From Thermoplasmatota archaeon (GTDB taxonomy: Archaea; Thermoplasmatota; JAKEGO01), in NCBI GenBank assembly GCA_028279595.1, contig JANQNK010000020.1:32001-96000 (forward strand): a stretch of 64,000 nt of DNA. The letters run 5' to 3'. Shown here piece after piece: positions 1,831 to 46,150 of this stretch; position 1 is the first letter of the stretch, and each line of letters opens with the position of its first letter. A program made the position numbers and the translations under genes. The notes beneath the pieces are model-generated. The model was not told where the DNA came from. It saw only the letters and a program-made list of their open reading frames with translations, and made no database searches.

Positions 1831-4422
1831 TTGCCAAACATGTTGGGACCCCAGCACGTGTTCGTCATGCTCCTGACCGTTATGATGATATCCATCGGAA
1901 CCGCGAGTGTGGAAGCCGATGAGGTGTATGATGAATACGATGTCTCGTTCGATAGTCCCACCTCCGTCACGGTGGAGTGGGAATGCTCCATCCAGCTCCT
2001 TACGGTCGATTCCTCGTTGCGTGACTGGGAGAACATCAAGTCAGAGAACCTCCAGGAGAATGCCTCCAGGATAGTGTTCGACAGCGCCAACCTCACCGCG
2101 TCCCGTTTCTACCTCTTCAGCCAGATATCCAACGGGACCGTGACCTGGGACGAGGATGTCATATCCTGCACCTTCACGATCACCCTTGGCAAGCGGACCT
2201 GGGCACTTGACGAGTACGACGTAGTCTCGATGGACGATGTCGTCGACGCCGCCCTCGAGATGGGCGGGAACGTCAGCATCTGGACCACGATCTGGGTCGA
2301 GGGAGAACACCACGCGAACGTCACCTTCGGCGTTGATTCCCTGGGAGACGATACCGGTGGGTCAGGTGCGTACATCATACCCACAAGGTACGTGAACAGG
2401 ACGGTGAACGCCCTCTCCGGTCCCAGGCAGTGGAACCGGTACTACGGGATCATGGGAAGGGGAGGAGTACAGATCGAGGACCCCTTCATCGACGCGGACA
2501 TCTACATGCCATCGATGAAGCTATACGAGCTCAACGGGACGGTCTCCTACGGCACCATCGACCTGTGGGACTACGGGATCGAACTGCCCGACACCATCAA
2601 CCTGACATCGATGAACGCCGGCGGTGTGCGGATCCTGGTGAACAACGGACTTGCCAATTGGACGGACATAATCGACGACGTCGCGGACGAGCTCGTCTAC
2701 GGCGGCATCGACATCGAGCGGGCCATCCGGGAAACCTTCAATAGCGATGGGTCGATAGCGGTCGATTTCGACCCGGATTCGATAGCGACCGTTCCGTACA
2801 CCAGGGGTCAGCTCGCGGCACAGGGGCCGATAGAACTGGACCTGCACAGTGCCGATGACGCACAGCTCTTCAACGAGGATGATGAGACATTGATGGGATT
2901 CCTCAACTCCGGGGCCAGGACCCGAATGGGGACCAATGCAGACCTCTCCGGATACGACTACAGGTTCATGTTCCGGGCTCCTTACGGGATCATTGCCGAA
3001 CCCGAGCTCGGCGAACAGGTCGGGAACTTCGCCAGGTGGAACGGCTCCGGATTCCTGAACACGTCCATGTGGTTGAGTTCGACCGATGCCCCTGGCGTCA
3101 TCCAGAACGACACGAACGTCATGATCGACATCGACATGAGCGACATATCCCTCCTCGGGATGAAGATGAACTACGAGTTGAACGCCGAGGGCCGCGTCAG
3201 GTGGATGCTCCTCGGACACGACCTCCGGAAGGGCGTCCCGCGGGACATGGAGATCGAGTACGTGAGCGCCGACCTCATCCGGATGATGTACGGGAAGGGC
3301 CTCATCAACGAGGAGGACATCGACAACATAACCCGCGAGATCCGCGAGGGCCTCGAGGAGGATAGCCCGTTCTCAGCGGGCATGGAGATCGAGGTCACGG
3401 GCTATGACGGCGAGTGGGACATCAACGACATGGACGGCCGTCCGGCCGTCGTTTTCACGATATACTCGAAGGGGGAGATGGGTCTCAGGGGCGGCGAGAA
3501 CGTCCTCCTGAACATGATATCGGTGCCCATCGAGTTCGAGCTCGCCTCTGTCGAGGGCTGGAACACGACATACAGTATATTGCTTCCCGAAGGCCTATCC
3601 GTGGCGAGCGTTGAGGTCTCCGACGGGGAGGTCACCAAGTCCACCGAGGGATTCAAGCACAGGGTAACCATCCGGATCCCCAGGGACGTCGAGAGCGTCA
3701 CCGTCAAGCTCAAGCTCAACGTGGGAATGATGTTCCTGATCAGCCAGTTCTGCATGTGCTTCCAGGGACTGCTCCTGATCGTCGTTCTCCTCGTCCTGGT
3801 CAAGGTCTGGAAGTACGTAAAGGAGAGAAGGGCCGAGAAGAAGGACGACGAGCTCATCGCCAAGGGACTGAAGGCGAAGGCAGCCATCGCCACCCTCAAG
3901 GCCGCCAAGGCCGCCGAGGAGCGGGGAGAGGAGCCTCCCGAGAAGGGTCCGCCTTCCGAGGATGATGAGGAGGTCGAGTTCAAGGAGGACGTTCCGGAGG
4001 AGGAACCCGAGGAGGAGGTCCCGCCGGAACCGGTCGAGCGGCGTCGGAGGCGGAGACCTGAGCCACCGGTCGAGGAACCCGAACCTGAGCCTGAGCCCGA
4101 GCCAGAGCCGGAACCCGAACCATCCGATGAACCCGATGAACCGCTTTATGAAGATGAGGAGCCAGAACCTCCCGCGGAGCCGGAACCTACCGCTGAAGCC
4201 GGAGGGCCAGCGGTGATGGGGAGGCCGGGACCTCAGACACCGGACCCCGAGGCGGTCAAGGCTGCCAAGGGAACCCCTCCGCCGGTGGCACCCGCCAAGT
4301 CCGATGTGGAGGAGGATGTCGAGGACGGACCGGAGGAAGAGGAGGCTCCCGAAGACGGATCCGACGACGAGGAACCGGCGGACGAGCCAGATTCCATCGA
4401 GGACACCTCGGAATGGTCCTGA
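1831..4422 (+). CDS. Large secreted, membrane-anchored hypothetical protein with acidic Pro/Glu-rich cytoplasmic tail
   Basis: Signal peptide, ~600-aa domain with many N-x-S/T sequons, TM near aa 640-660, then EPEPEP low-complexity tail; no family recognised. Confidence 0.7.
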   Translation: MPNMLGPQHVFVMLLTVMMISIGTASVEADEVYDEYDVSFDSPTSVTVEWECSIQLLTVDSSLRDWENIKSENLQENASRIVFDSANLTASRFYLFSQISNGTVTWDEDVISCTFTITLGKRTWALDEYDVVSMDDVVDAALEMGGNVSIWTTIWVEGEHHANVTFGVDSLGDDTGGSGAYIIPTRYVNRTVNALSGPRQWNRYYGIMGRGGVQIEDPFIDADIYMPSMKLYELNGTVSYGTIDLWDYGIELPDTINLTSMNAGGVRILVNNGLANWTDIIDDVADELVYGGIDIERAIRETFNSDGSIAVDFDPDSIATVPYTRGQLAAQGPIELDLHSADDAQLFNEDDETLMGFLNSGARTRMGTNADLSGYDYRFMFRAPYGIIAEPELGEQVGNFARWNGSGFLNTSMWLSSTDAPGVIQNDTNVMIDIDMSDISLLGMKMNYELNAEGRVRWMLLGHDLRKGVPRDMEIEYVSADLIRMMYGKGLINEEDIDNITREIREGLEEDSPFSAGMEIEVTGYDGEWDINDMDGRPAVVFTIYSKGEMGLRGGENVLLNMISVPIEFELASVEGWNTTYSILLPEGLSVASVEVSDGEVTKSTEGFKHRVTIRIPRDVESVTVKLKLNVGMMFLISQFCMCFQGLLLIVVLLVLVKVWKYVKERRAEKKDDELIAKGLKAKAAIATLKAAKAAEERGEEPPEKGPPSEDDEEVEFKEDVPEEEPEEEVPPEPVERRRRRRPEPPVEEPEPEPEPEPEPEPEPSDEPDEPLYEDEEPEPPAEPEPTAEAGGPAVMGRPGPQTPDPEAVKAAKGTPPPVAPAKSDVEEDVEDGPEEEEAPEDGSDDEEPADEPDSIEDTSEWS

Positions 4423-12962: not shown

Positions 12963-14402
12963 TCAGAGAAGTACTGTAAGTCCGTACGCCAACGCTGCCG
13001 TCGGAGCCGAGGCCAGAATTACCGCGATGCCGAGATGCTCAAGCTTCTTGATCCTGGACAGCGAGACGCCGTGAGCGATTATCGCCACGGCGACGAAGGC
13101 CTCGACGAGGGCGGCCGTGGGGAGCTCATGCATGTAAAGAGTGACAGAAAGGACCCCCATGGATGCACCGATCGAGAGCAGGGCCGCACCGTAGAGGATC
13201 CTCCTGATCGGCCAGTTCGAGCGGCTCATGATGATGAGGACAATGCCGACACCGGCGATCAGGAAGGCCACCGGGATGACCCTGGGGTCATCAATGTCGC
13301 TGAGAGCGTAGTAGGGAACGAATATGATAGAGTAGATCCCGGCACCGAGGGAGATCCCCCTCAGTCCTGGGATTCCTATCCCCCAACCCTTCCCGCTTAG
13401 GAGAACCGTCATCACACCGAGGACGAGCCATGCCTCGACGTGCCCTTGCTCCTGACCGGATGCGGGTATCATCGAGGCGATGCCCTGCAGTACGAGCATC
13501 GTCCCCGCGACGGACATCATCATCTCCCTGCTCCTCCTCTCCGGTAGGGCTTTGTAGAAGACGAACAGAGAGAACGCCATCAACGGGACCATTGGGGTGT
13601 CCGGATGCGAGAATCCCCTGATCAGATAAGATAGGTGGACCAACACGATCGCTGCTACAGCCATCGGCATCCATGTGATGCCAGCCCGTCTGCCGAGCTC
13701 CATCGTTCCCGATAGGAACATCAGTCCTGGAATGTAGGCCATGAGAAGTACCAGGGTGTTGTCGACGAGAATGAAGGTTGCGAGGAGCAGTGCGATCCCT
13801 GCCGGCAGGGTGACGGAGATCAATCCCTTCAGGATCTCCTCCTTCTGCGCAGCGATGTCACGCCAATCCATCCTATCACCGTAACCGGACGGTGGAGGTA
13901 CATCCCGGTGAGCATCATCCTCTGGAACTGACTCATCGTTCTCACTGGTATTTTCCTCATCATCGGGGAAATCCGGCTCCGGAGGAGGTACAGGTCGTCC
14001 GATGTCCTCACCGAGTTCCGATAGTTTGATGACCTGCAGGGGGCTGAAACCCGAGTTGACAGCGAAGGAGAACGGCACCTCCGCGCCATCGACAAAGACG
14101 GTGCAGGGGTCCAGGCCGTTCCTCAATTTGGTCGATTCCGACAGTCCGTCGGGTGTCAGGATATAGGACTTCTGGCTCCGGGCCTTGCCACGGATGCGCG
14201 AGAGCGTTACCTCCACGTGTCCCTTGTCGACCATCTTCGAGAGAACGATGGCCACGTAACCTCGCTTGATCGACGTCGCCTCGGCGATGCCGGACTGGGT
14301 GACCTCGGGCGGCCTCTCGTAGTCATCGGCGGACCGTATCCAATCCGAGAGGTGGAGGAGTATCTTCTCCTCGGCCGTCAGTCTCGGCAGTGACATCGGC
14401 AT
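12963..14402 (-). CDS. MarR-like wHTH domain fused to a polytopic membrane domain (~9 TM)
   Basis: TQSGIAEATSIKRGYVA..LSKM..KG.V...Y.LT..G; Pro/acidic linker; hydrophobic C-half; start uncertain (14396/14402 after GTATATAA, or 14579). Confidence 0.72.
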   Translation of the reverse strand: MPMSLPRLTAEEKILLHLSDWIRSADDYERPPEVTQSGIAEATSIKRGYVAIVLSKMVDKGHVEVTLSRIRGKARSQKSYILTPDGLSESTKLRNGLDPCTVFVDGAEVPFSFAVNSGFSPLQVIKLSELGEDIGRPVPPPEPDFPDDEENTSENDESVPEDDAHRDVPPPSGYGDRMDWRDIAAQKEEILKGLISVTLPAGIALLLATFILVDNTLVLLMAYIPGLMFLSGTMELGRRAGITWMPMAVAAIVLVHLSYLIRGFSHPDTPMVPLMAFSLFVFYKALPERRSREMMMSVAGTMLVLQGIASMIPASGQEQGHVEAWLVLGVMTVLLSGKGWGIGIPGLRGISLGAGIYSIIFVPYYALSDIDDPRVIPVAFLIAGVGIVLIIMSRSNWPIRRILYGAALLSIGASMGVLSVTLYMHELPTAALVEAFVAVAIIAHGVSLSRIKKLEHLGIAVILASAPTAALAYGLTVLL

Positions 14403-14593
14403 GTGGTAGCCCGTCAGGTCGTTATATACCTTATCGAAATCCCTTCCACGTCCTTCCCCGGAATATCTGGCCCGGGCTGAGAACCCTTCCGGTATCGTAC
14501 CGCTATGTCCGTGCAACTGCCCGTTGCGGTCCATCGTGGTCCCAGCTCTTTCCATGCCGAGAACGGCCGTTCCCGACATCCTTGATCACTTTC

Positions 14594-17500
14594 CTAGGCC
14601 GATGTTATCGTTATCTCTGGTGATTCCGCCCTCAATCCAGGCTGGTACATGTCGTATACGACCATCGAGGCAATGGTCGAGGTCGCCTCGAGGTCGGCCC
14701 TGATGGTGTACGGGATCTCGATCTCGGACCCCGGACCGATGGGCGTGATGTAGACGAGAACGGTTCCGTCGTCGTCTTCCCAGTTGTCTATATCGCCTTC
14801 CTCGATCATCGTGTCGAGGTCCCATGTCATCTGTTCGAACCCTGCGGGCGTTGGCATCTCGATGAGGATCATCTGGAGCGGGTCGGTTCCGTTGTACGTT
14901 ATCGACACGGTGCCGTTGACTATGTCACCCGTGCTCACGTTGACATCGCTCATGATCAGGTCGATATCGATCGGTAGTATGACCGGTTCGTAGGGCATGT
15001 AGTACGATGATATCAGCTGGAATGCGATCTGTCCGATGCTGGCGGATCCGATCGTAACATCGAACTCGTCGTCAACGTATGGCCTGAGATCGATGTACCG
15101 TGTCACTTCGGCGTTCTCCTCGGTAATTGTCTCCTCGTGGACCAGCGTTCCGTCGATCGACACGGAGACCGCCATCTCCTCGACATCTAGTATCGCCTGT
15201 CTCGCAATGGCCTGGAAAGCCACGACCGTGTCCCTGGTCCCGAAGAACCCTGTGGTCGTCCTGTGATTGAGGAGATACCTCGTCCCTGCCGTCGCATAGA
15301 ATGGTCTAAGGTCGTTAAGCGCCATGACGCAGTAACCGGTGGTCTCGACCACTTGAGGGGTCGAGCTCCAGCGCCAGTAGTAGCGGTCGTCGCTTCCCGA
15401 GTCGATCATCGTGTTGTCGGTTGTCCAGTAGGTCTCGTCACCGTCCACGATGGCCAGCTCCTTGAGCCTGTCCGCGATAGGAGTCGTCTGTGAGTGTCCC
15501 CGTTCCTCCAATACTATCAGGGATAGTGCGAGGGAGTAAGGATCGTCCCATATCTCGCTTAGATGAGAACCGATGTAGGCGACGGCGTCATCGAGTGCCG
15601 TTCCATCGTATCCGGAATAGATCAGGGACCTGGCGACATAAGCCGTCGTCGCAACGGTCTTCGTCTTCAGCACGTCCGGTGTGTACTCGTAAAAGCCCCA
15701 CTCGGGGAACGTGAACGAGCCGTCGGAATGCTGCAACTCCAGTATGAGTGCCTGCATGTCGGTGATGACCTTGTGGTCGACAGCGAATCCCGAGTCTATC
15801 GCGTCCTGGAACGTTATGAGGCCCCATGACGTGAGCCATGGGTGTGGCGCCCTGTCGGATGGGAACCATACGATGCCCCTCCCGGGTCCGTCCGGATTTT
15901 CCATGAGGAAGGTGAGCTCGTGGAGGATGCCCTGAACGACGATCTCCTCGTACTCACGCTTCTTGTCGTCGCCGATGCTGTCGTCGAGCAGCCTGTAGGC
16001 GATGACGTCCATTGCGAGAGTGGACATGCTCTGCTCTCCGCAGCCGCTGACATAGTGGATGTACTCCTCAGCACCGTCCATCGCTACAGCGTTCATCGAG
16101 CCCTGGAGCTTTATGTAGGCCATCTCGCTGCCAGGGACACGAAGCGGGTCCATCTCGATCGTGGTCTCGACGGTCATGTCGTCCTCGAGTATCCCGTTCG
16201 TGACGTTGTCGATCCTCAAACCGGTCGGTTCGACCCTGATCTTCCTGATCACGGAGTCCGAAAGGATGCCGTTCGTCGCATCGAGCCTCACTGAGGCCTC
16301 TCCGACCTCGTCCGCCACAAGGCGGAAGGAGATCGAGTCCACTGAGTTCGCGTCGACGACGACCGTTCCATCGGTTGCCCCGACGATGGTCATTCCCTCC
16401 GCAGATATGTCAAGTGCGATCGTTGACTGCTCATCGAGATAGTTGTAGACGAGAGCCTTCAGTTCGAACTCGTCGCCTAGAAGCGCCCTTACGGGAACGT
16501 CTGGCTCTACGAAGAAGTCCTGGAACACCGTGATCTCGATGTCGTCCGTTCCGATCCAGCCCTCCATGGTGGACGCAACGGTCTCCATGCTCCACGTGGT
16601 GATGGTGTCCGGTGCTGTCAGATCGATCGAGGCCATTCCGTTCTCATCTGTCTCTATCATCGGATTCCAGTACCACGTTTCAGGGAAGTACTTCCGTACG
16701 TGGGTCACGGATTTCCCACCGGCCGATGAGTAATCATCGCCGGATCCGGCCTGGGAACCGTTCCCGGCGCCCAATGCGTTCTCGGGAACACCGCCATCTG
16801 CTATGAAATCCCATTCATCCCAACCACCCCGCCATCCACCATCCTCCTTCTCGAGGAGCTCCCCGGAATCCTCATCCGCGCTGCTTGAGGGTGCGGACAT
16901 GTAGGAACCGATGCTGTCCTCAGAAGTCGGCGTGATGGTCTGGGTCATTATCGCTGCAGGCGGAAGTGCGACAAGAGCGACTGCAAGCATTGCATATGCT
17001 GACGCCGTCCTTGCCTTGCTGACGAGATACATGAATGCGATGACCAGGACGAGCCCTATCGAGAGGATGGCGGGGGCCATGCCCTCTGCCTGGAAGTCGA
17101 GCGCTTCGTTCGTATCGTGGATGTAGGCGCCGATCTGGACCTGTTCCTCTCCGCCCGTCGGCACGTAGCCATCGATGCCAGGGGCGGATTCCTCTCCGTC
17201 CATGTACCTGAAGACCTGGTAGACCTCCTCGTCCTCGTAGAGATCGGATGCCGTCATCCTCTGGGCGAGTTCGAACACCGAGGTATCGATGATCCTGATA
17301 CCGAGCGCTGCCTGGACCGGAAGGTCGTGCCTGTCGACGGAGATATCGACCGAGAGGTCGTCGCCGGGTTTCACCGTCGATGACGACGGTGTCGCTGATA
17401 CGGTCAGCGCATCGGGGTCGATGACCGCGACGAGTGCGCTGGAGGTGGCCGAAGAAAGGTCGTCCGCTATCCTGAGCGCCCTTACCTCGATGCCAGGGGC

Positions 17501-19024
17501 CATCTGCGGCGTGGTGGTGAACGAGAATGAACCGCTGCCCTCGGAAAGGTCGAACGTTCCTGAGCGGACACGGGTGCCAGACGTGAAAACGTCGTAATAC
17601 CCCTTCGTAGAGAGGCCACCGCTCGAAACGACGGAGAACGTTGCTATCTCCCCGACATCGTAAGAGTACATGCCGGGAACGATCTTGATCCCGTCCTTGA
17701 CGCCGTCCAGGTCCAGTACGTATTGCGCGGTCGTGTCGCCGTCGGTGACGTTCACCTCGATGTAACCGCGATGTTCGGGAACGGTGAAGGTTATCGGGGT
17801 CATCCCGAGGCTGTCCGTCTCGAGGTCCCATGAACCAACGACCTCGGGTCTTGGATACCACCAGCCTCTTGACTGATCGTCGTTCGGGTCCTCCCAGTCG
17901 TCGGAGTCGTATTCGAAGAGGTTGGCCTCGACAGATGCTTCCGCAGGTCGACCATCCGGATATGTCACTATCAACCAGTAGGTGGACTCAAGGCCGGCGA
18001 TGTTCCAGTCACCGACCACCGCGAGGGTCAGAGGCGACTGGAAGAACGATGTCGCCAACGTCTTCGTCTCGGTATGGTCCGCCGTGTCAGTTACTGTGAT
18101 GTTGAACAGGAACTGGTCGAATCCGGACCAGTTCGTTCCTGGTGTGAAGTCTACGATAAAGGTCCCGGAGAGTGAATCGCTCTCGAGGGTATTCAGCGAT
18201 GTGGAACCGTAATGGTCGTCGTGGCCGATGATCTCGACCTCGATCTCCCCCTCCACAGGCTGTCCGAACGAATAATCGATGGTCAGATCGAAGGTGATGT
18301 TATCTCCCGGAACGTACCATGCCTTGAGCCCGTCAGCGGCGATGATGAACTTGGGAAGGACGTAGCGGTCCACCTTGAGCGAGGCCTCCTCGAACTCGTC
18401 GCCGACCGTTGCCCGAACGGTGTACTCACCGAGGGGCATCAGGTCCGAGAGAGTGAAATCAAGTGCGGAAATCCCGTATGCGTTGACATCCAGCGTACCC
18501 TTGAAGACCTTGTCGCCCTCGGGTGAGAATATGTCGATCTCCACCGCATCGGTCGATGGCGTCCGTGTCGACCTTTCGAACGTCAGGAACCGCATGTGCA
18601 CGGTCTGGCCCGGTTGATAGATCGGCTTGTCGGTCTGGATGATAATTGAGACCGACCTCGACTCGACGACGCTCAGGGTCCCCGTGAATGAGCGTCCGTC
18701 AACGTTCACGACTATCGTGGCGTTCCCGATGGGCGGGATGAAATCGACGTTGGCGATCCCATCACCGTCGGTCTTGCCAGCGTACTTCTCGATCCCCGTT
18801 TCGGTGATTATCTCCACCAGGACCAGCTCTCCCTCGAGCGGTTCTCCGTCCAGGTCCTGAGCGATCACGGTCACCTTGTCCGACTCGTCGCTGCTGAGTT
18901 CCGACGGCATCATTACCGTCACGTCCGATTCGGAGGACCTGTAGACGTCGTCCAGACTGTCCACGAAAACGGCCGTTCCGACCAGGGCAAGGCAGAATAC
19001 GATGATTATCGTCCATCTCTTCAT
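14594..19024 (-). CDS. Alpha-2-macroglobulin / thioester-containing protein
   Basis: N-terminal signal or anchor; MG2 IQTDKPIYQPGQTV; VRKYFPETWYWNP; APDTITTW; thioester GCGEQ (16031-16045); GFFGTRDTVVAFQAIA; receptor-binding-type M.LIE...PAGF C-domain. Confidence 0.92.
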   Translation of the reverse strand: MKRWTIIIVFCLALVGTAVFVDSLDDVYRSSESDVTVMMPSELSSDESDKVTVIAQDLDGEPLEGELVLVEIITETGIEKYAGKTDGDGIANVDFIPPIGNATIVVNVDGRSFTGTLSVVESRSVSIIIQTDKPIYQPGQTVHMRFLTFERSTRTPSTDAVEIDIFSPEGDKVFKGTLDVNAYGISALDFTLSDLMPLGEYTVRATVGDEFEEASLKVDRYVLPKFIIAADGLKAWYVPGDNITFDLTIDYSFGQPVEGEIEVEIIGHDDHYGSTSLNTLESDSLSGTFIVDFTPGTNWSGFDQFLFNITVTDTADHTETKTLATSFFQSPLTLAVVGDWNIAGLESTYWLIVTYPDGRPAEASVEANLFEYDSDDWEDPNDDQSRGWWYPRPEVVGSWDLETDSLGMTPITFTVPEHRGYIEVNVTDGDTTAQYVLDLDGVKDGIKIVPGMYSYDVGEIATFSVVSSGGLSTKGYYDVFTSGTRVRSGTFDLSEGSGSFSFTTTPQMAPGIEVRALRIADDLSSATSSALVAVIDPDALTVSATPSSSTVKPGDDLSVDISVDRHDLPVQAALGIRIIDTSVFELAQRMTASDLYEDEEVYQVFRYMDGEESAPGIDGYVPTGGEEQVQIGAYIHDTNEALDFQAEGMAPAILSIGLVLVIAFMYLVSKARTASAYAMLAVALVALPPAAIMTQTITPTSEDSIGSYMSAPSSSADEDSGELLEKEDGGWRGGWDEWDFIADGGVPENALGAGNGSQAGSGDDYSSAGGKSVTHVRKYFPETWYWNPMIETDENGMASIDLTAPDTITTWSMETVASTMEGWIGTDDIEITVFQDFFVEPDVPVRALLGDEFELKALVYNYLDEQSTIALDISAEGMTIVGATDGTVVVDANSVDSISFRLVADEVGEASVRLDATNGILSDSVIRKIRVEPTGLRIDNVTNGILEDDMTVETTIEMDPLRVPGSEMAYIKLQGSMNAVAMDGAEEYIHYVSGCGEQSMSTLAMDVIAYRLLDDSIGDDKKREYEEIVVQGILHELTFLMENPDGPGRGIVWFPSDRAPHPWLTSWGLITFQDAIDSGFAVDHKVITDMQALILELQHSDGSFTFPEWGFYEYTPDVLKTKTVATTAYVARSLIYSGYDGTALDDAVAYIGSHLSEIWDDPYSLALSLIVLEERGHSQTTPIADRLKELAIVDGDETYWTTDNTMIDSGSDDRYYWRWSSTPQVVETTGYCVMALNDLRPFYATAGTRYLLNHRTTTGFFGTRDTVVAFQAIARQAILDVEEMAVSVSIDGTLVHEETITEENAEVTRYIDLRPYVDDEFDVTIGSASIGQIAFQLISSYYMPYEPVILPIDIDLIMSDVNVSTGDIVNGTVSITYNGTDPLQMILIEMPTPAGFEQMTWDLDTMIEEGDIDNWEDDDGTVLVYITPIGPGSEIEIPYTIRADLEATSTIASMVVYDMYQPGLRAESPEITITSA

Positions 19025-19260
19025 TTCGTTCACCCACCGCTTCTCTGTATAATCACGGACGACGAGGGTACAAATACCCCTTTCTGCTGCATGCAGCATG
19101 CAGGACCTGCCATCGGCGGTAATATTCTCCATCTCGACCGGTCATCCCAATTGCGTTTTTCGGTCGAATTCACACAAAAATCAACGATATATGGCGTATT
19201 TTCTCCAGTCAGTAATGCTTTTATACGCACAATGGCTTTTTCAACGGAGTGGTGGCGGTC

Positions 19261-19956
19261 ATGTTCAGGGACTGTATCAAGGGGTTGGACCGGGTGTTTC
19301 AGAGTGAAATCAAACCTGGCAAGACCATCCTTGTCACGGGCCCTCCTGGTTCTCTGAAATCGAGTTTCGTTCACGCCGTGATGAAGTCATATGTGGAGAA
19401 ATCCGGTGAGTTCGGACTCTTCACGACCCTCGAGCAGGACACCAGCTCCCATCTGGAGGGCATCGAATCCATCGGTCTGGGCCTTTCCAGGAACCTCCAG
19501 ATAACCGATTACAGCGAGATCCTCATGGACGAGTACGGGGGGAACTTCAACTACATGGAGTTCACCGAGATGATGATCGACCACTTCAAGGACCGCTACG
19601 GCGACAGGTTCTCGATATACGGTTTCGACTCCCTGGGTGCGCTCTATTCCATGATGCCAGATGTGAAGAATCCGCGCAAGTTCGCTTTCCAGTTCTTCTC
19701 GATGGTCAGGAAGCACAATCTGACGACCTTCATCATCCTGGAGAGCTCCCTCCAGGGCGATCCACTGACCATGGGGAACGAACCGTTCCTGGTGGACGGG
19801 ATATTCCATCTGGGTATCAAGAGGAACCGAGGTCACCTGACACGCTACTTCCAGGTCATCAAGATGCGCGCGACCAAACACAGCATGGACCCGTTCGCCA
19901 TCAAGGTGGACGACGGCGGCATCGAGATACTCGGACCCCTTCTCGACACCTCTTGA
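19261..19956 (+). CDS. KaiC/RAD55-like single-domain RecA-fold ATPase
   Basis: I.GLD, Walker A GPPGSLKS, TLEQ, FDSL, VDGI..L, R.FQVIKMRAT.H; start 19249 or 19261. Confidence 0.88.
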   Translation: MFRDCIKGLDRVFQSEIKPGKTILVTGPPGSLKSSFVHAVMKSYVEKSGEFGLFTTLEQDTSSHLEGIESIGLGLSRNLQITDYSEILMDEYGGNFNYMEFTEMMIDHFKDRYGDRFSIYGFDSLGALYSMMPDVKNPRKFAFQFFSMVRKHNLTTFIILESSLQGDPLTMGNEPFLVDGIFHLGIKRNRGHLTRYFQVIKMRATKHSMDPFAIKVDDGGIEILGPLLDTS

Positions 19957-23258: not shown

Positions 23259-26200
23259 TTATGCCGGTCCCTTCCTACGTGGTTTCCTTGCCTTTTTACC
23301 TGTACGAAGGACATCCTTGTATTCGTCAGTTATATGGCAGCCCCATTTCCGCTCTGAAGATACAACACCCTTCGCCTTCAGGTCCTTGACGTGATAGGCG
23401 ACCGTCGACTGCGTGATATCAAGACGTGAAGCCAGCTCTCTCTGCTTGATACCGGGCTGTTTAATGATCTGCATCACAACCCTCTTCTCTACGTCGCTCA
23501 GAACGACGTCTGGGACCCTGTAGCCGTAAGGATAGAACCTCCGATACATTCCATCCGGACGTGATTTGATGAAACCACCGGATTCGAGCACCCGCAGGTG
23601 GTATCCGGTGGTCCCGTTCTTCAGGTCGAGTTCCTTCTTGATCCTGTTGAAGTGGGAACCCGGATTCTCGTTGAGGTAGAGTACGATGCGACCCCTGGTC
23701 TCATGGTCGGTGATGGCTTCCTTCTTCAGTTTGGAATATAGTGGGAACAGGAGAGGGATAGCGAAGTAGCGTCCTCTGTCGATGGCCCACAGGCCTGCGA
23801 ATCCTGCTCCGAGGAGGCCGATGGAGGCTCCGACGAAGATCCATGTAACGAAGACCGGATCTGTGGAATCTCCAATATCATCGAGAGATATCGTCCCTCG
23901 CGCTGTTCCGGAGTTCAGTTTTTCGTTATCATCGGAATAGCTTGTCGCCGTGATGTTGAAGCTTACCGAACCGCTAGCATTCAATGGTACCAGCGCCGAG
24001 ATCCTAGCCTCTTTCTCGGAACCCGGTAGGATGTAAAGACTTTGATTGGTGATCGTGACCCATTCGCTATCGACCGTCAAACGGATCATCTGGGGAACGT
24101 TACCCTGATTTTCCACCGTAAGGTCATACTTGACCTTATCACCGGGATCGGCGCCGGACGTCAATCGGTTCAATCCCAGTGAGAAAGAATAATCGGCCCC
24201 ACTAGCTGTGACAGTTGTCTGTTCTGAACCGACCATCTGATCTTCGTGTAGAACGACGACCTCGAATGTATAATCTCCAGATTCGTTCAGTGAGACGCTG
24301 AATGTGAGATTCGTATAGCTCGTACCTGGGGAAAGGATCAAAACCTGAGACGAATTCTTAACTACGGCGTCTTCCCGCTTTGTATTCAATCTTACTGTAA
24401 GATTGGATTCATGAGGGATCCCCGAATGGTAACCAAGGGTGATCGTCACATTAAGGGATTCACCTGTGACCACGTACCCATCATAGGAGATGTCTGCTGT
24501 AACCTCGAGTGACCGATTGAGCCATTTCTCTGGTGGGCTGTACGGATCCATAAGGGGATAGGAGTCGATCGTGCCAGTACCGTTATGGATGTAGTACGGA
24601 ACATCACCGATTCCATCTTTATCATTGTCCTTTCCAGTATAGTCGCTCCAGTAGTTACCCTCAGATCCATCGTCCCACGTGGTGGCAATACCTACATTCG
24701 TAACCTGGTGACGATCCTCATTGTGAATATAGAAGTTATTATGATGAATTGTCGAGTTTATACAGGTCTTTGTAATGTAGAGCGCAAGTTCATCACCAAG
24801 TGTGAACTCATTGGCCCACACCATGGTATCGAGAGACGAATAATCGATGACGATACTGCTGTAGGTATCGGAGTTCCCACGGAACCTGTTGCTTGAGATG
24901 TTCGTGTCCTCCGAGTACAACAGGCGGACCCCCGTTTCGGAAGAACGAATCTCATTATCGACTATTCGGTTACCCTTGGATCTGTGAAGATATATCCCCC
25001 ACTCACAGGTCTCGATGGAATTGTTCATCAACAGGTTGTCGTCTGAATATATCAGTGAAATGCCAGAATAGGATTGGTTTGAGACCGTGTTCTCACGGAC
25101 GATGTTGTTCCGGCAGAATCCCATCTGTATGCCAATTCCCGAATGATTGACAAGATTCCCTTCGACGATCACATACTCACAGGCTGCCATTATTATATGG
25201 CGGGAGGTTCCGTTCACAACTCCTCCACTAGCATTCTTTACGTAGATTATCGGGCTGCCATCGATCTGGTTTGACTGATCGATACTGTGTGTGTTCCAGT
25301 TCGCTTTGTAATGTCCGTAGATGTTGATCCCACAGTTCGAAAAGGTATTATTCGATACTACGGTCCGATTCGAATGCCAGATGCCCAAACCATATTCTGC
25401 ATCGACGACACGATTGTGGATGATGCGATTATCATCGGACCACGCGATGTGGATTGACCGTCTTGAATCACTGAAACTACACGACTCGATCAGGTTCCCT
25501 TTCGCCCCGTCCTCAAGGGCGATCCCTCTCTCGATGTCGGATAAGTGGATATTCAGGAGCGAGCACTGATCAGAGTCCACCAATATTCCGTTCCGGGGTC
25601 TATACTTGGTGCCTTCCTCGATGCCAAGACCTTCGATCATTACGTTATTACTCTTTACCCAGACCACTGACATCTCCTCGTCCGAGCCCGCTTCCAGCGT
25701 GGTGTTGGATGAACCATTTCCTATGATATCCAACCTCTTTTCGATGATGATTGATTCCTCGTATTCACCAGCGTAGATGTTAATGATGTCAAAGTCTGTC
25801 GCATGTTCGAGTGCATCCTGGATCAACGAGAAATCAGCCCACGAACCATTGTCATCATCCACGATCCAGGTCTGTGGAATCATATCATTTGAGCCGGACC
25901 CATTCGGATTCATAAGAGGAAAAAGGTCCGCGATGAGCAAACTGCCGTTGATCACATAGGGTATATCGCCGATCCCATCGTTGTTCACGTCGGTCCCATT
26001 GTAATCCGACCAGTAATTGCCACGTTTTCCATGATGCCATGTAACGTTGTTACCGTCATCCTGAGCGTTCTCCGTGTTATCTATCAGAGCATTTTGATAG
26101 ATAATGCCATAGGTGTTGGACTCGTTCTGGTCTTTTACTCTTCCCCAGAGCTCGATACCTATCTTCGAATTGTTCTGGATCGTGTTGTTATTTATAATGA

Positions 26201-28718
26201 CGTCCGTGATGTCTCTGCCGGCACCGATCATGTTAGCATAGATTCCTATACCAATGTTCGAATTGTTCGAGAAGGTATTGTGATGGATATGGAGTTCATC
26301 TCCGAATCCCGTGACCCTCAATCCGTATTCGTTATTTTCACACGTATTATTGACGATCTCCAAGTCATCCGGCTTGTAGACATCGATACCTATCCAGGAA
26401 TTTCCGGCACAGATATTGTCGACCACTGTACTTCCACTCGATTCACCTACATATATCCCTACGAAGCAGTTCTCTAGATAGTTAGAACCGATCAACGAAT
26501 CATTGCCCCCACTTATGATTCCGGAGACTGAATCGGTACAGTTAAGAATGATGTTTTTTAACACGGTACAGTTCGATGACCACTGGATCCTGACACCGCC
26601 GCCATTTCCTTCGATATAATTTGCGTTTATTTCGCTCATCCACGATTCCCGGATAGCGATCCCCTTCTGAGTATTGTTAATGATAGTGCATTCATTGATC
26701 GTCAATTCGTCTACTCCTTCCGAGTTGATACCGTGATGACCGTTGTTCAGGATGGACGAATATGATATTGACACATCCTCTGAATCAAACAGGCCAATAC
26801 CACGATGATAACTATCCTGAATGACGCAGTTGAAGACTGTCACCACCTCGCTTTTATCAACCGTCAATCCGTACTGACCGCTGTTCGTGATAGTGACGTT
26901 CTCTAACCTGATCTGTGTGCTGTGCTTTACTAGCAGTGAGGATACCGGTCCATTCTCGGTCCAACCCCCTCCACCCATGATCGTTAGGTTAAAGACGGAA
27001 GCTCCATTGCTTCTTACCTTTAGTGCTGATTCATTCACGGCACCATTGATGATAGTTCCGGTTCCATTCCCACGTACGGTCAGCTGATCCTTCTCGAGTA
27101 TGACCGATTCGCCATATGTCCCCTCATATACGTAGATGATGTCTCCGGTCCATGAATTGTCGATCGCGTCCTGGATGCGAGTGAAATCTGCCCATGATCC
27201 ATTGTCGGCGTCGACTATCCACTTTCTCGGGTCCCTTGATGGATCGATATCGGGAATTGATCCATTCATCGGACGCATCAATGGATATTTATCCGATCGG
27301 TTACCATCTCCGTCGATGTGGTACGGTTTGTCTCCCACACCGTCTTCATCAGAATCATTACCGTTATAATCTGACCAGTAATTACCGTGTCTGTGATAGT
27401 ACCATGTGATGTTATGACCATCATCGACAGCTTGGTTAGTATTGTTAATGATTGAATTCTCGTAGATCACACCCCAGGCCCTGCTCATCTCCTCATCCTC
27501 GATCTCACCCCAGAGCTCGATACCGAGATTATCATTGTTGGCTATCGTGTTGTTCCAAATCACGAGATTTCTCAGCTCGGAGTCATCATTTTTAATCTGA
27601 GCATAGATACCAATTCCATTGACCGCACTGGTCGTGATGGTATTCTGAAAGACATCGACCTCGTCACCAATACCAATGATCCTCAATCCATCCTCACCAC
27701 TATCCACACATGTATTATTGATGATGTGGTAGTCCAATGGATTGTACACCTGGATACCAAGAAAACGATTGCCGTAACAGATGTTGTCACGCACTGTAAT
27801 GTTGACCGATTGTCGCGGCGAGATCCCGCTACTGCAATTGAAAATGTAGTTATCCTCAATCAAGGAATCCGAAACCTCCCAGAAATGAATACCAGAGTGA
27901 CTGCCGTTCATTACCACATTAGATCTAATTATAAATCTAGTCGTTTCACTGCCAATATTGATGCCACCGGAACTGTCCTCAACGTGATTGTCACTAATCA
28001 GCCCGATGTCCGAAAATCGGCTCTGGATCCCGTCATAGGTATTGTTTGCAACCAGGCAACCGCTGACCGTCAGATCGTCGGAATAACGTGCACAGATTCC
28101 GAGGTCGTAGTTATCTCTCACAGAGGTGTTTGAAACTGTTACAGCGTTCGAATTGACTATGTAAACGGCACGGTCGAGAATGAATTGGATAGTACAGTCG
28201 TGGATGATGACGTCCTCACTGTTCTCGACATATATACCGAAATATTCTCCATCTTTCACGGACACGTTGGTCAAATTGACATATTGGGCATGGTCAACAT
28301 ATACAGAAGGTATCGTAGCGTTACCACTCCCATCTTCCCCACCACCGAACACCGAAATATTCTCGATACCGATCGAATCGCCTTGGATATCAAGCACCGT
28401 CTCGCCAGATGTTCCATTTACGATACAAATATCAGATGCATTGCCCAGGATGGAGATGTCATTCTTGTCAACCAGGACCGATTCGTAGTAGATGCCTTCG
28501 AAAATACGGACATCATCCCCACCGGTCGAATTATCTATTGCGTCCTGTATCAACTGGAAGTCCGCCCAAGATCCGCTATCGTCATCGACGACCCAGGTTC
28601 TTCCTTGTGCGTCTGTGGACAGGACCAATAGAAGAACCAGGACCAAGGATACCGCTATCAATACCCTTCGATAGAGCCGGAAACCATCGCGATTGTCACT
28701 ATTTTCTTGTCCCCTCAT
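23259..28718 (-). CDS. Giant surface protein: 3 NosD/CASH beta-helix modules, Ig-like domains, TM, tandem wHTH
   Basis: Three W.VD.D.GSWADF..IQDA...GNYWSDY.G.D...DG.GD.PY modules; TM near aa 1630; R.RI..Y...NPG.HFN.IK..L....GT..YHL..LE and PGI.QRELA..L...QST..YH...L. Confidence 0.88.
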   Translation of the reverse strand: MRGQENSDNRDGFRLYRRVLIAVSLVLVLLLVLSTDAQGRTWVVDDDSGSWADFQLIQDAIDNSTGGDDVRIFEGIYYESVLVDKNDISILGNASDICIVNGTSGETVLDIQGDSIGIENISVFGGGEDGSGNATIPSVYVDHAQYVNLTNVSVKDGEYFGIYVENSEDVIIHDCTIQFILDRAVYIVNSNAVTVSNTSVRDNYDLGICARYSDDLTVSGCLVANNTYDGIQSRFSDIGLISDNHVEDSSGGINIGSETTRFIIRSNVVMNGSHSGIHFWEVSDSLIEDNYIFNCSSGISPRQSVNITVRDNICYGNRFLGIQVYNPLDYHIINNTCVDSGEDGLRIIGIGDEVDVFQNTITTSAVNGIGIYAQIKNDDSELRNLVIWNNTIANNDNLGIELWGEIEDEEMSRAWGVIYENSIINNTNQAVDDGHNITWYYHRHGNYWSDYNGNDSDEDGVGDKPYHIDGDGNRSDKYPLMRPMNGSIPDIDPSRDPRKWIVDADNGSWADFTRIQDAIDNSWTGDIIYVYEGTYGESVILEKDQLTVRGNGTGTIINGAVNESALKVRSNGASVFNLTIMGGGGWTENGPVSSLLVKHSTQIRLENVTITNSGQYGLTVDKSEVVTVFNCVIQDSYHRGIGLFDSEDVSISYSSILNNGHHGINSEGVDELTINECTIINNTQKGIAIRESWMSEINANYIEGNGGGVRIQWSSNCTVLKNIILNCTDSVSGIISGGNDSLIGSNYLENCFVGIYVGESSGSTVVDNICAGNSWIGIDVYKPDDLEIVNNTCENNEYGLRVTGFGDELHIHHNTFSNNSNIGIGIYANMIGAGRDITDVIINNNTIQNNSKIGIELWGRVKDQNESNTYGIIYQNALIDNTENAQDDGNNVTWHHGKRGNYWSDYNGTDVNNDGIGDIPYVINGSLLIADLFPLMNPNGSGSNDMIPQTWIVDDDNGSWADFSLIQDALEHATDFDIINIYAGEYEESIIIEKRLDIIGNGSSNTTLEAGSDEEMSVVWVKSNNVMIEGLGIEEGTKYRPRNGILVDSDQCSLLNIHLSDIERGIALEDGAKGNLIESCSFSDSRRSIHIAWSDDNRIIHNRVVDAEYGLGIWHSNRTVVSNNTFSNCGINIYGHYKANWNTHSIDQSNQIDGSPIIYVKNASGGVVNGTSRHIIMAACEYVIVEGNLVNHSGIGIQMGFCRNNIVRENTVSNQSYSGISLIYSDDNLLMNNSIETCEWGIYLHRSKGNRIVDNEIRSSETGVRLLYSEDTNISSNRFRGNSDTYSSIVIDYSSLDTMVWANEFTLGDELALYITKTCINSTIHHNNFYIHNEDRHQVTNVGIATTWDDGSEGNYWSDYTGKDNDKDGIGDVPYYIHNGTGTIDSYPLMDPYSPPEKWLNRSLEVTADISYDGYVVTGESLNVTITLGYHSGIPHESNLTVRLNTKREDAVVKNSSQVLILSPGTSYTNLTFSVSLNESGDYTFEVVVLHEDQMVGSEQTTVTASGADYSFSLGLNRLTSGADPGDKVKYDLTVENQGNVPQMIRLTVDSEWVTITNQSLYILPGSEKEARISALVPLNASGSVSFNITATSYSDDNEKLNSGTARGTISLDDIGDSTDPVFVTWIFVGASIGLLGAGFAGLWAIDRGRYFAIPLLFPLYSKLKKEAITDHETRGRIVLYLNENPGSHFNRIKKELDLKNGTTGYHLRVLESGGFIKSRPDGMYRRFYPYGYRVPDVVLSDVEKRVVMQIIKQPGIKQRELASRLDITQSTVAYHVKDLKAKGVVSSERKWGCHITDEYKDVLRTGKKARKPRRKGPA

Positions 28719-28832: not shown

Positions 28833-31800
28833 TCACAGCTTGTCCTTCTGGTCCTTCAGGATGGTCCTGTATTCATCGGTAAGCTGACAGCCGGTCTTCC
28901 GCGAATATGTGACGATACCCTTCTCCTTCAGGTCCTTGACGTGATAGGTGATAGTGGATGCCGATATCTTGAGTTTGGTCGACAGCCTCTTCTGGCTGAT
29001 CCCTGGGTTCTTGATTATCTCCATCACTATTTTCTTCTCCATGTTCCCCAGGTGGACGTTCGGGATTGAGTAGCCGTGGGGGTAGAATCGGCGGTACATC
29101 CCGTCGGAGACCGACTTGATGAATCCGCCCTTCTCAAGGACCCTGAGGTGATACCCCGCGGTACCGTTCTTCAGGTCCAATTGTTTCTTGATCTTGTTGA
29201 AGTGAGCTCCTGGGTCATTATCGAGATACACTACGATCCTGCCTCGGATGTCGTGGTCTTGGATATTGTCTCTCTTGAGTTTAGAATAGAGCGGTGAAAG
29301 GAACGGTATTGCTAGATATCGACCACGATCGGTCGACCAGACGCCAACCAACCCGATGGCTCCAAGAGCCGTGACACCAAGGAATATCCATAACAACCCT
29401 ATCGGGTCGGCAGTGGGGTCTGAGACCGTTATTTCCACCGATGCTGAACCCGAGTTGTAGACCTCATCGTCCAAAGATATGCTCTCTGTCAGGATTGTGA
29501 AGTTGACCACACCTTCGGCTCCTGAAGGGATCGTTGCTGTCACCGTCGTTGTCCCCTCGGAATGAGGTAGAATGTAGATCGTTATGTTGTCGATTACTAT
29601 CCAATCCTCCTCGCACGATAATCTGAACCTTTGAGGGACATTCCCTTGATTCTCGATAGTAAGAGTATATTCGACTTCATCTTCTGGCTTCGCTTTTGAT
29701 GACGAGCGGTCCATCGTCACCTTGAACGAATGGTCCCTCACTTCGCTCAGGATGGCTGCCTCGGCTGTTTCGACCTCGACATCATCGTGAATGACCTTAC
29801 CCTTGAAGGTGTAGTTACCTGATTCGTTCAGGTAGAGTGATTGTTCCAATGTCTGATTCCACTGACCTACCGGAATAGTGATATTACCCTGGATGGTAGA
29901 ATAGTGCTCTCCATCGAGCTGGATTTCGATCTCGACCGTTGCATATGTTTCTTCAGGATCCGCTGAGGCTGACTCGAGGACGATGACCACGGTTATGGTC
30001 TCCCCCTTTATCGTTTCACCTATTGTCCAGATCTCGGAGGAAACATCAACTGATGTCCCTGGCTCCATCAACGGGTAGGGGTCTTTCGCACTGTCGTTCC
30101 CATCGAGGAAATAGGGGGTGTCACCGATACCGTCCCCATCGTCGTCCGACCCTGTATAATCAGACCAGTAGTTGCCTCTTTTCGCCATGTACCAATAATT
30201 GTACGTGGTGTCATCGAACCCCTGGGAGTAAGGTCCATTATTGGAATTGAACGAATTAAGACTCAGGGTATTGTTGCGGCTGTAGACCGGATCATGGAAG
30301 ATGTTCAGGTAACTCCTCACCACGATTCCATGCTCTCCATTTCCATCAATGCTATTATTGAGGATGAGGTTCCCATCACTTCGATAGACCTCGATCCCTG
30401 CAATGGTATTATTGAATATGTGATTCGATCCGATTACATTGTCATCGCTGTCTTCCAAATAGATACCCGTACCCAGCGTCTGATTTGGGAAATACCTCTC
30501 GTCATAATATGGTCCGGTACCCTGAACTTCACACCCAAGGATTCGAGACTCATTTCCCATTGAAATGTAGATAGCATATTGGTGATTATCGTTAAATGAA
30601 CATCTTTCAATTGCCGTGTATTCTCCACCAAATTGCGATACGCCTCTCACAAACCCAGTCACTGAGGACCTTGCCAGTGAGAAATTACTGGACTTGTACA
30701 ACTTAATCCCCGTCAATCCGGTTCCTTTTACGTCAACGTTCGAGACCGTGATGTTATTTGAGAATCCGATCTGAACGCTCGATAGGTTCATGATTTCATT
30801 CTCATTGAATATTGTGAAGTCTGTAACATTGGCAAGGATGAAACAGGATTGGAGTCCGGAGCCCATACCGCCCGTCCGATTTCTGATGTAACTCACTTCC
30901 CTACCATCCATGGTGTTCGAGTCGAATGTATGTGTCGTCCAGTCTTCAAGAACCTCACCAGTCATGATAATGGAGGCATTATCGAATTGATTCCTTTCAA
31001 TAGAAATCTCACGAGACCTATAGATGGTCAGTCCCTCCTTCAAATCGGTGAACCTGCAGCTAATAACCTTGACTCCCGACGATTCCTGGATATATATACC
31101 ATCATCGTCCCCGGAGGAGAAGGTGCAGTTGGAGATGATCCAATCATCACAGCGAGGTAGATAGATGCTCCATCCAGAGATGTCCTCAAAGACGGAATTC
31201 ACGATTCTACTGCCATCCCGACTTCCCCATATCCCGCGTGAATCCATAAAAATGCAATTCCGGACCAAGTTGTTGTTACCACTTAGATCAATTCCCCTGG
31301 TTCCGTTGTCAAATACAATATTTTCTATAAGACAGTCATCTGCATGAACGTGAATCCCATCTCGGTTACTGTTTTCAACTATTCGGAGGCCGATTAGACG
31401 CGTGTCATCTTCTAAGATACTGACGTAATTATGTCCGCAGATAATTCTTGACCGATGCGATTCGTTGCCAATGATCGTGACACTTTTTCGAGCGTCAAAA
31501 TCAACGTGATCACCATCGAAAGCTACTACGTAATCACCGTTATTTGCATTATCAATGGCAGCCCTGATCGCCTTATAGTCGTTCCACCAGCCGTCATCGT
31601 CGTCAACGACCCATACCTTGATTCCCTCAGCTTCGACGCCGTCCCACTCCTCGTCAATAGGATGATCGTCTGTGGCGCCCGTCTTTCCCAAGAGGATGTA
31701 TGGTTCTTCACTCTCATGATCCGACCAGAAGTTACCCGCGTCACCATTATCCCAAATGTTGAAATAACCATCGTCAAACGCCTGGCTCGAGTTTCCATTG

Positions 31801-34013: not shown

Positions 34014-34155
34014 GCTATCCCTCATCGGGATTTCTATCTTTCCGTGCTTATATGTGCAGATTGGTTCAGTCATCGAAACTCATAGGACTTTCGGTCGAAT
34101 TATCGGAAATGTTCACGTATATTACTAAATACCCCCAGTGTTTACGTTCGTTCAG

Positions 34156-45592: not shown

Positions 45593-46150
45593 ATGTTCCC
45601 GCTCGGGCACCTCGGCATCACACTCGGCATCGCCATCGCCCTGGTCAAGGTACGGCCGACCCTCGAACGGCGGCTGGACCTGCGATTCGTGCTTTTCGGT
45701 GCGATACTGCCCGACGTCATCGACAAGTTGTTCGGACACGTGATCCTCGCGGGAACCCTCGACAACGGACGTCTGGTCGGTCACTCGGCGCTTTTCGCCA
45801 TCGTCTTCCTTGCCGTCGGGATCCTGATCGCATCGGACCGACTGACCTCGATCGGGTTCGCATCCGGTGTCCATCTCGGTCTGGACCTGATGTGGTACCT
45901 GCCTTCGACCCTTTTCTGGCCCGCATATGGGTTCGGATTCCCCGCCGAGGACTTCGAGGTCTACGACTGGTTCGCGACACTGGTCAGGGACCCTGTCGTC
46001 CAGGCCGGCGAGGTGATCGGCGGCATCATCCTACTCTGGTTCGTCCTCCGGCATGGTCTCTACAGGATCGATCGGATACGGGAATTCCTGTTCAGGGGCG
46101 TCCTGGTCAGACAGCGACCTCGGCCGCGTACCAGAAGTAGATCAGCATGA
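45593..46150 (+). CDS. Membrane-bound metal-dependent hydrolase (YdjM-like)
   Basis: M...GH, GA.LPD.IDK, R..GHS, H..LD, WP motifs. Confidence 0.85.
   Translation: MFPLGHLGITLGIAIALVKVRPTLERRLDLRFVLFGAILPDVIDKLFGHVILAGTLDNGRLVGHSALFAIVFLAVGILIASDRLTSIGFASGVHLGLDLMWYLPSTLFWPAYGFGFPAEDFEVYDWFATLVRDPVVQAGEVIGGIILLWFVLRHGLYRIDRIREFLFRGVLVRQRPRPRTRSRSA

Follow-up and report, generated by a model that had tools for sequence, protein, structure and literature searches.

Among the central components of animal innate immunity are thioester proteins such as alpha-2-macroglobulin (A2M), CD109, complement C3 and C4 and the insect TEPs, whose history in prokaryotes is still sketchy. In C3 the anaphylatoxin domain occupies the slot that is filled by the bait region in A2M. 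Archaeal A2M homologues with a signal peptide, a thioester domain (TED) and an intact CxEQ motif have been described, and a role in defence or conflict was proposed for them; no functional data accompanied the proposal (Makarova et al. 2021, PMC8416519). The set comprises 27 proteins from arCOG genomes, with Halobacteria and Methanomicrobia mainly named, and an archaeal A2M with an intact CxEQ is a kind already published, not a new one (PMC8416519). Here we compare with these systems a gene at 14594..19024 (minus strand) in a 64,000-nucleotide stretch of DNA, called the window throughout, from a Thermoplasmatota archaeon (lineage JAKEGO01; assembly GCA_028279595.1, contig JANQNK010000020.1, positions 32,001 to 96,000). 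It encodes an A2M/TEP-like thioester protein of 1,476 aa, recognized from the translated open reading frame (ORF), six Pfam domains and 559 homologues.

What truly distinguishes this gene is a predicted transmembrane (TM) hairpin in the bait slot, together with a dedicated partner, a membrane protein with a winged helix-turn-helix (wHTH) domain encoded downstream. This variant was not found in the searchable literature, and full-text searches turned up no account of a bait region that contains a membrane hairpin. An earlier reading of the window, made without database searches (the sequence-only reading), had placed the protein in the A2M/C3 superfamily, and that placement stands; its most unusual features, the bait-slot hairpin and the wHTH membrane partner, are missing from that text. 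The same reading held that no archaeal member had been functionally characterised, in agreement with our failure to find a functional study of one in the searchable literature.

Results

A complete thioester protein of the eukaryote-like type

The ORF is open from 14594 to 19132 and would specify 1512 aa if counted from its first ATG; residue numbers of the A2M protein follow this count, and all features of the A2M and partner genes are on the minus strand. Six Pfam domains, all above their gathering cut-offs, keep the canonical order of the A2M/TEP superfamily: MG2 (aa 163-246, 4.5e-18), MG3 (4.4e-07), A2M_BRD (aa 482-622, 2e-14; 17267..17689), A2M (aa 819-907, 9e-21), TED_complement (aa 1011-1310, 2.9e-22; 15203..16102) and A2M_recep (aa 1420-1503, 3.3e-06; 14624..14875). 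A2M_BRD, the last domain before the bait slot, matches its profile from end to end (PF07703, positions 1-140 of 140) and is modelled by AlphaFold2 (AF2) with a predicted local distance difference test score (pLDDT) above 90. The FPETW motif and the A2M domain (PF00207) together occupy aa 816-907 (16412..16687), and R-x-x-F-P-E-T-W is invariant in the family. The TED (PF07678) aligns with C3d and with the CD109 TED, and the C-terminal A2M_recep domain, or MG8, scores 28.1 bits against a cut-off of 21.7 (PF07677). Pfam gave no ANATO or NTR match in the protein, and the chain ends with MG8.

The diagnostic motifs are present exactly, with FPETW at 16673-16687, PDTITTW at 16592-16612 and the thioester motif GCGEQ (aa 1030-1034, including Cys1031 and Gln1034) at 16031-16045. 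The sequence-only reading had called a full-length A2M/C3-superfamily protein of ~1,476 aa with GCGEQ at 16031-16045, and had named MG2, A2M, TED_complement and A2M_recep as the families that a Pfam scan should return. ORF, motifs and all six domains agree with this call, the motif position matches exactly, and the four families all score above cut-off.

The closest proteins of known structure are eukaryotic. The best sequence match in the PDB is frog A2M (1.3e-48), followed by CD109, A2ML1, C3, human A2M, C4 and TEP1 (E to 1e-34), and a Foldseek search with the AF2 model of MG5-MG7 placed human CD109 first (E 7e-16), then C4, C5 and A2M, with ECAM of E. coli in 47th place. A distinction from the E. 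coli type had already been drawn from the sequence alone, and it holds: YfhM of strain K-12 reads GCLEQ, adjoins pbpC and gives a best BLASTP segment of 44 bits. The absence of PBP1C was likewise borne out, as no transglycosylase (PF00912) was found in the window genome, which is 86% complete. Pfam reported none of the bacterial-type MG domain families for the window protein, and its N-terminus (...IIIVFCLALVG) has no [GAS]-C lipobox. A family search yielded the 559 homologues, of which those with names come from Thermoplasmata/Thermoplasmatota metagenome-assembled genomes; GCGEQ and FPETW occur together in all of the best 120. Judged by sequence, this is a complete A2M/TEP thioester protein of the eukaryote-like (CD109-like) type, not of the E. 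coli ECAM type, and belongs to a clade centred on Thermoplasmatota.

Proteins of this general type are widespread among prokaryotes. A search seeded with a Hadarchaeota relative that has no hairpin returned at least 4,746 prokaryotic proteins, often labelled "CD109 antigen" by JGI, from organisms that include Methanolobus (among them M. psychrophilus R15), Methanococcoides, ANME-2, Hadarchaeota, Micrarchaeota and Planctomycetota. Human CD109 scores 404 bits to this group and 159 bits to the window A2M. The best 120 of these proteins all carry GCGEQ and FPETW; GCGEQ is no metazoan hallmark, and the earlier description of it as the motif of metazoan A2M and C3 is not supported in that form.

A predicted membrane hairpin in the bait slot

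An AF2 model spanning aa 476-936, built on 75 homologues, gives the MG domains on either side of the bait slot pLDDT values above 90. The slot itself opens with a disordered linker (aa 626-672; 17117..17257) for which pLDDT is below 50 and the mean pairwise identity in the family is 32.7%. It is followed by the predicted TM helical hairpin (aa 674-731; 16940..17113) and then by a hypervariable, acidic, Gly/Ser-rich linker, presumed to be the exposed bait (aa 733-807; 16712..16936), with pLDDT below 40. The hairpin was assigned from hydropathy, AF2 helices and family conservation. Hydropathy shows hydrophobic cores at ~aa 685-705 and ~712-733 separated by a basic loop, SKARTAS, and in the AF2 model helices 674-706 and 710-731 (pLDDT 73-84) are joined by a 3-residue turn, while the flanks fall below 50. 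In nearly all of the 120 best homologues FPETW is preceded, at a distance of 50-160 residues, by a hydrophobic zone, single or double, the K/R-rich loop is seen throughout an alignment view of 24 homologues, and the hairpin is present in every clade member whose region lies on its contig.

Sequence identity among 114 family members is lowest in the post-hairpin linker (21%) and the hairpin (22.8%) and reaches 41-60% in the MG and TED domains. The post-hairpin linker ranges in length from 50 to 158 aa and consists of 18% D/E and 41% G/S/T/P/N. In both length and sequence it varies as bait regions do, and the linkers of the slot appear bait-like in variability and predicted disorder alike. The N-terminal export signal, the even number of helices and the K/R-rich loop together suggest, as the simplest topology, that the signal or anchor places MG1-MG6a outside the cell, that the hairpin passes into the membrane and back with its loop in the cytoplasm, and that MG6b-MG7-CUB-TED-MG8 would again lie outside.

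In a FastTree phylogeny of 49 sequences, all 27 hairpin proteins form one branch (support 98), and 26 of the 27 are apparently from Thermoplasmatota. The single branch was recovered again after the hairpin and bait columns had been removed. Six relatives at 28-30% identity have no hairpin (two Altiarchaeota, two Hadarchaeota, one labelled "Thermococci" and one from Sedimentisphaerales). We claim neither direction nor date for the change in the hairpin, since FastTree is a quick method, the ECAM outgroup is very long and eukaryotes were left out. A phylogeny spanning bacterial, archaeal and metazoan thioester proteins had been suggested in the sequence-only reading; its archaeal and bacterial portion yields the hairpin clade, and eukaryotes were compared by bit scores to PDB chains only.

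Conservation and predicted chemistry of the thioester

V-[ST]-G-C-G-E-Q-S is invariant in 114 of 114 family members. The persistence of GCGEQS and of many other TED residues in a family that is only 31-37% identical overall argues for selection on thioester function. The position equivalent to the catalytic His, ~110 residues after the thioester in C3/C4B/TEP1-type proteins, is occupied differently. When aligned with CD109 using HMMER, the window protein has no His at this position and instead has Tyr1148 (15689..15691), in a register that could be off by 1-2 residues; among the relatives, the aligned residue is Tyr in 103 of 114 and Trp in 8 of 114. In C3 and CD109 this His catalyses transacylation to hydroxyl groups. 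Among C4A/C4B and A2M, a thioester without the catalytic His reacts directly with amines after activation, which is the chemistry of the inhibitor type. With Tyr instead, the window protein would be expected to react with amines directly, like A2M and C4A.

A wHTH membrane protein encoded downstream

The partner gene (12963..14402), recognized from homologous ORFs downstream of A2M genes, specifies a membrane-embedded winged-helix protein of 479 aa. Its ORF is open to 14579, and a start at M60 (14402) fits both the homologue in the 83%-identical locus L002 and a TATATAA box at 14422..14428. This box, read from the sequence ~23 nt upstream of the ATG and weak as evidence, suggests that the partner may have its own promoter.

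The N-terminal 100 residues (14103..14402) form a predicted MarR-like wHTH (AF2 pLDDT ~95). In a VIA search this domain matched AF1382 (2qvo; Z 12.4, root-mean-square deviation 2.1 over 85 aligned residues) and MarR proteins (Z ~11), and HTH_Crp_2 was found in 28 of 34 partner homologues, the window copy alone scoring below the Pfam cut-off (20 against 27 bits). A disordered linker follows, where most homologues carry a CPxC...CPxCG zinc ribbon. The remainder (aa 180-478; 12969..13865) is a polytopic membrane domain with 11 TM helices predicted from hydropathy and AF2 (pLDDT ~80-95). This domain matches no Pfam family, and Foldseek searches of the PDB and VIA searches matched the wHTH domain alone. 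An atlas fold search with the partner returned only STAND/wHTH clusters from Thermoplasmatota, at template-modelling scores below 0.4. An ESM-feature search with the membrane part pointed to GT-C glycosyltransferases (STT3/PMT) at 0.78, a weak lead only, as this is below the level of shuffled sequences.

The association of the partner with A2M was surveyed with a profile built from four partners. Downstream sequence of at least 1.5 kb is available at 52 hairpin-clade loci, and 40 of these have a homologue downstream of A2M; none of six loci without a hairpin does. To cover the phylum we used an even set of 300 Thermoplasmatota species genomes and the window's own (301 in all). Of the full-length partner matches listed, 11 of 11 fall in A2M-positive genomes, in 4 cases on a contig other than that of A2M; a further 298 weaker profile matches beyond those listed are assumed to be wHTH-only. 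The partner-type wHTH alone occurs in 174 of the 301 genomes, often in 3-4 copies per genome, and is mostly the N-terminus of 750-1,000-aa ORFs, identified by the atlas search as STAND AAA_16+TPR ATPases. It therefore looks like a lineage-wide output domain; instances include window 14103-14402 (-) and G000:C11:138555-139022. Most simply, the partner would be a specific regulator of the A2M gene, inherited with A2M.

Related loci vary in their surroundings. In L003 a wHTH-NB-ARC/TPR gene lies divergently upstream of A2M, and L006 has a similar partner-profile match upstream. L003 also carries, between its A2M and partner genes, a 95-aa ORF with two hydrophobic segments (L003:10479-10766, plus strand), which is absent from the window.

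A planctomycete parallel

A different arrangement of A2M and transcriptional control was found in a bacterium. In the Sedimentisphaerales genome G301 (L072:6254-11640, minus strand), a gene for an extracytoplasmic function (ECF) sigma factor (Sigma70_r2, r4_2, ECF) lies directly upstream of one for a 1,602-aa protein that combines a zf-HC2 anti-sigma domain, one TM helix and a full A2M with GCFEQ. Between its BRD and A2M domains there is a double TM zone (aa 799-852), followed by a linker and VRxYFPET. A second A2M of the same genome (L073, 1,644 aa) has neither hairpin nor anti-sigma domain. In the tree, the L072 A2M falls outside the archaeal hairpin clade and groups with this hairpin-less paralogue, from which it follows that the hairpin trait has changed at least twice. 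Hairpin-type A2Ms thus have links to transcription factors in both Archaea and Bacteria, of a different kind in each, which raises the standing of a sensor function without proving it.

Gene start and neighbouring genes

For the A2M gene, a start at 19024, corresponding to Met37 (MKRWTIIIVFCLALVGTAVFV), is more likely than one at 19132. It is favoured by the hydrophobic signal peptide or signal anchor with which the product would then open (aa 37-61; 18950..19024), assigned by hydropathy, by the same hydrophobic opening in nearly all of the 120 homologues, and by a TATA-like box, GATTATACA (19046..19054), whose ATTATA lies ~26 nt upstream of the ATG. The upstream start was dropped on the N-termini of homologues and the position of this box. 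Read from the sequence and weak as evidence, the box would fit an archaeal promoter whose transcript has little or no leader. The host genome (2.29 Mb in 21 contigs, with 0.2% contamination) has this A2M as its single TED gene. The protein is strongly acidic (D+E 16.9%, K 1.9%), as well as lying on a long branch that it shares with the 83%-identical P0002; this may reflect a salt-adapted lineage.

The immediate neighbours of A2M in the window are the wHTH membrane protein and a KaiC-like single-domain ATPase (19249-19956, plus strand), the latter divergent to the A2M gene. We rejected the ATPase as part of the module, as a homologue adjoins A2M only in L002, the closest relative, and in 0 of the other 65 loci. 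Further away, two giant proteins of 1,819 and 1,746 aa are encoded in tandem at 23259-28718 and 28833-34073 (both minus strand), in a low-GC island with 42-49% GC compared with 57-61% in the surrounding DNA. A Pfam scan of the first, the one of the two that was scanned, showed NosD/beta-helix repeats and, at the C-terminus, a pair of wHTH domains (HTH_HVO_0163_N, MarR_2). The A2M modules of L002 and L003 likewise have giant beta-helix/NosD proteins in their vicinity. Elsewhere in the window are a gene whose 666-aa product joins AhpC/Redoxin-type thioredoxin-fold domains to a DsbD-like TM domain (46107-48107, minus strand) and an ORF of 863 aa for which Pfam gave no match at E below 1e-4 (1831-4422, plus strand).

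The sequence-only reading had linked the A2M protein to an M14 peptidase encoded at 58926-60929. The gene is real, a 667-aa M14 zinc carboxypeptidase on the minus strand (Pfam 6.9e-44), but the link is not supported: it lies 40 kb off, no peptidase is found among the conserved A2M neighbours, and the conserved neighbour is the putative regulator.

Discussion

From its anatomy, we consider the window A2M to be probably a covalent protease trap tethered to, or stitched into, the membrane. The protein would be stitched to the membrane of a wall-less or S-layer-covered cell, and on this surface an attacking protease would cut the exposed variable linker. The body would then rearrange as in A2M and CD109, exposing the Cys1031-Gln1034 thioester, which could capture the protease covalently at the membrane, presumably by the direct reaction with amines that Tyr in place of His would favour. 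The two halves would be held together by the split MG6 domain and remain anchored, since MG6 is common to both chains and at least one helix would still be attached.

Several observations weigh against this interpretation. Our grounds for thioester formation, for a protease cut in the linker and for covalent capture are family membership and anatomy, and with Tyr at the catalytic position the reactivity may differ from that of any characterised member. The protein has a long branch, and its nearest relatives outside a genus-level pair are only 28-37% identical. The distribution is patchy, with the A2M profile matching 26 of the 301 genomes and 22 of 137 genera, and the adjacent partner is missing in 12 of the 52 usable loci.

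The main alternative, possible though in our judgement rather unlikely, is that A2M serves chiefly as the extracellular input of a two-protein signalling device. This idea overlaps with trapping, which might then be secondary: cleavage or rearrangement of the ectodomain would be relayed through the hairpin to the polytopic domain of the partner, and its cytoplasmic wHTH would change transcription. The partner is built in a way that suits such a role, for a protein with 11 TM helices, short loops and no ectodomain would need a co-sensor. Its membrane module is confined, among the matches listed, to genomes with a hairpin A2M, even where the genes are unlinked; it stands beside hairpin A2Ms and never beside the six hairpin-less ones. 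STAND (AAA_16+TPR) signalling ATPases throughout the phylum carry the same wHTH at their N-terminus, and the Sedimentisphaerales ECF sigma/anti-sigma-A2M pair, with its bait-slot double TM, is an independent parallel. Nonetheless, contact between A2M and the partner is hypothetical, and a predicted complex of the hairpin segment (A2 residues 186-266) with the partner membrane domain (residues 175-479) scored 0.00, which speaks neither for nor against binding. The hairpin is also among the least conserved parts of the protein, more in keeping with a passive anchor than with a specific interface between helices, and the loci that have no neighbouring partner count against the device as well. An adjacent, lineage-specific regulator is, moreover, equally expected if the A2M gene is simply under transcriptional control. 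In a combined form, hairpin A2M and partner would make up a circuit that senses protease attack, trapping the enzyme and changing expression, with planctomycetes having reached the same logic separately through an anti-sigma fusion; we regard this as possible but less likely than not.

Two further explanations do without protease capture. The thioester could serve covalent tagging or adhesion, attaching the cell to foreign surfaces, viruses, prey or host cells or substrates in the manner of C3/TEP opsonins and Gram-positive thioester adhesins. The complete TED with its invariant motif would allow this, giant beta-helix surface proteins are encoded near A2M in the window and two related loci, and archaeal A2M homologues have been placed in loci linked with conflict between microbes (Makarova et al. 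2021, PMC8416519). We nevertheless find it improbable, given that Tyr replaces the His needed for hydroxyl acylation of the C3/C4B/TEP1 type, that stitching to the cell's own membrane in mid-chain would limit reach, and that in domain order, in its variable bait-like linker and in its best matches by sequence and fold the protein goes with the protease-inhibitor branch (A2M, CD109, A2ML1). Least credible of all is an inert, S-layer-associated scaffold of Ig-like MG domains in which the thioester motif is a relic that forms no reactive bond, a very improbable outcome in our estimation. Stacks of Ig-like domains are common among archaeal surface proteins, and an NCBIfam match to the S-layer protein SlaB was obtained; this match is weak, at 23 bits against a cut-off of 700, and involves one MG domain only, and we dropped the SlaB identity on that ground. 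The invariance of GCGEQS and many TED residues across so divergent a family argues against a relic.

If the protein does trap proteases, it is an example of how such a trap can be kept at the surface of a cell with a single membrane. The whole eukaryote-like machinery is retained in a family of more than 500 archaeal proteins, with the trigger region rebuilt as a hairpin and a hypervariable linker and a partner added. Should the partner read the state of the trap, the module would be a simple means of sensing damage and responding to it, one at which bacteria, as the planctomycete fusion suggests, arrived separately. Thioester macroglobulins would then be a recurrent prokaryotic sensor of envelope damage and not inhibitors only. 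The module poses a tractable question, that of a mechanical readout of bait cleavage in the A2M family.

Comparison with known systems

The best functional analogy is provided by ECAM (YfhM) of E. coli and the Salmonella A2M, monomeric, membrane-tethered thioester traps that protect the envelope. They differ in their CLEQ motif, in being periplasmic lipoproteins and in their operon with pbpC, whereas the window A2M has GCGEQ and the hairpin. In architecture the window protein resembles human CD109, a glycosylphosphatidylinositol (GPI)-anchored thioester protease inhibitor (8s3o, 9fx2), and A2M, A2ML1, TEP1 and C3, with which it shares the order MG1-6, bait slot, MG7, CUB, TED and MG8 as well as GCGEQ and FPETW; predicted attachment to the membrane is a further likeness to CD109. 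It departs from this group in scoring only ~159-169 bits, in having a TM hairpin in mid-chain where CD109 has a C-terminal GPI anchor, in the Tyr that replaces the catalytic His, in the absence of ANA and C345C, and in its dedicated wHTH membrane partner.

Among prokaryotes, the sister group of the hairpin clade in our tree is formed by the CD109-like proteins, such as the A-macroglobulin-like protein of Methanolobus psychrophilus R15. These have the same Pfam set, N-terminal signal, GCGEQ and FPETW; they are 28-30% identical to the window A2M, much closer to human CD109, and without the hairpin, with a hydrophobic segment in the slot in 2 of the best 120 and a partner gene in 0 of 6 loci. In the portion of the supplement to the published archaeal set that was examined, there is no Thermoplasmata entry, TM hairpin or wHTH membrane partner (Makarova et al. 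2021, PMC8416519). The planctomycete fusion also contains a eukaryote-like A2M whose bait slot holds a double TM segment, and it is physically coupled to a device for transcriptional control. It differs in being bacterial, in reading GCFEQ, and in achieving the coupling by fusion to a zf-HC2 domain rather than through a separate wHTH membrane protein.

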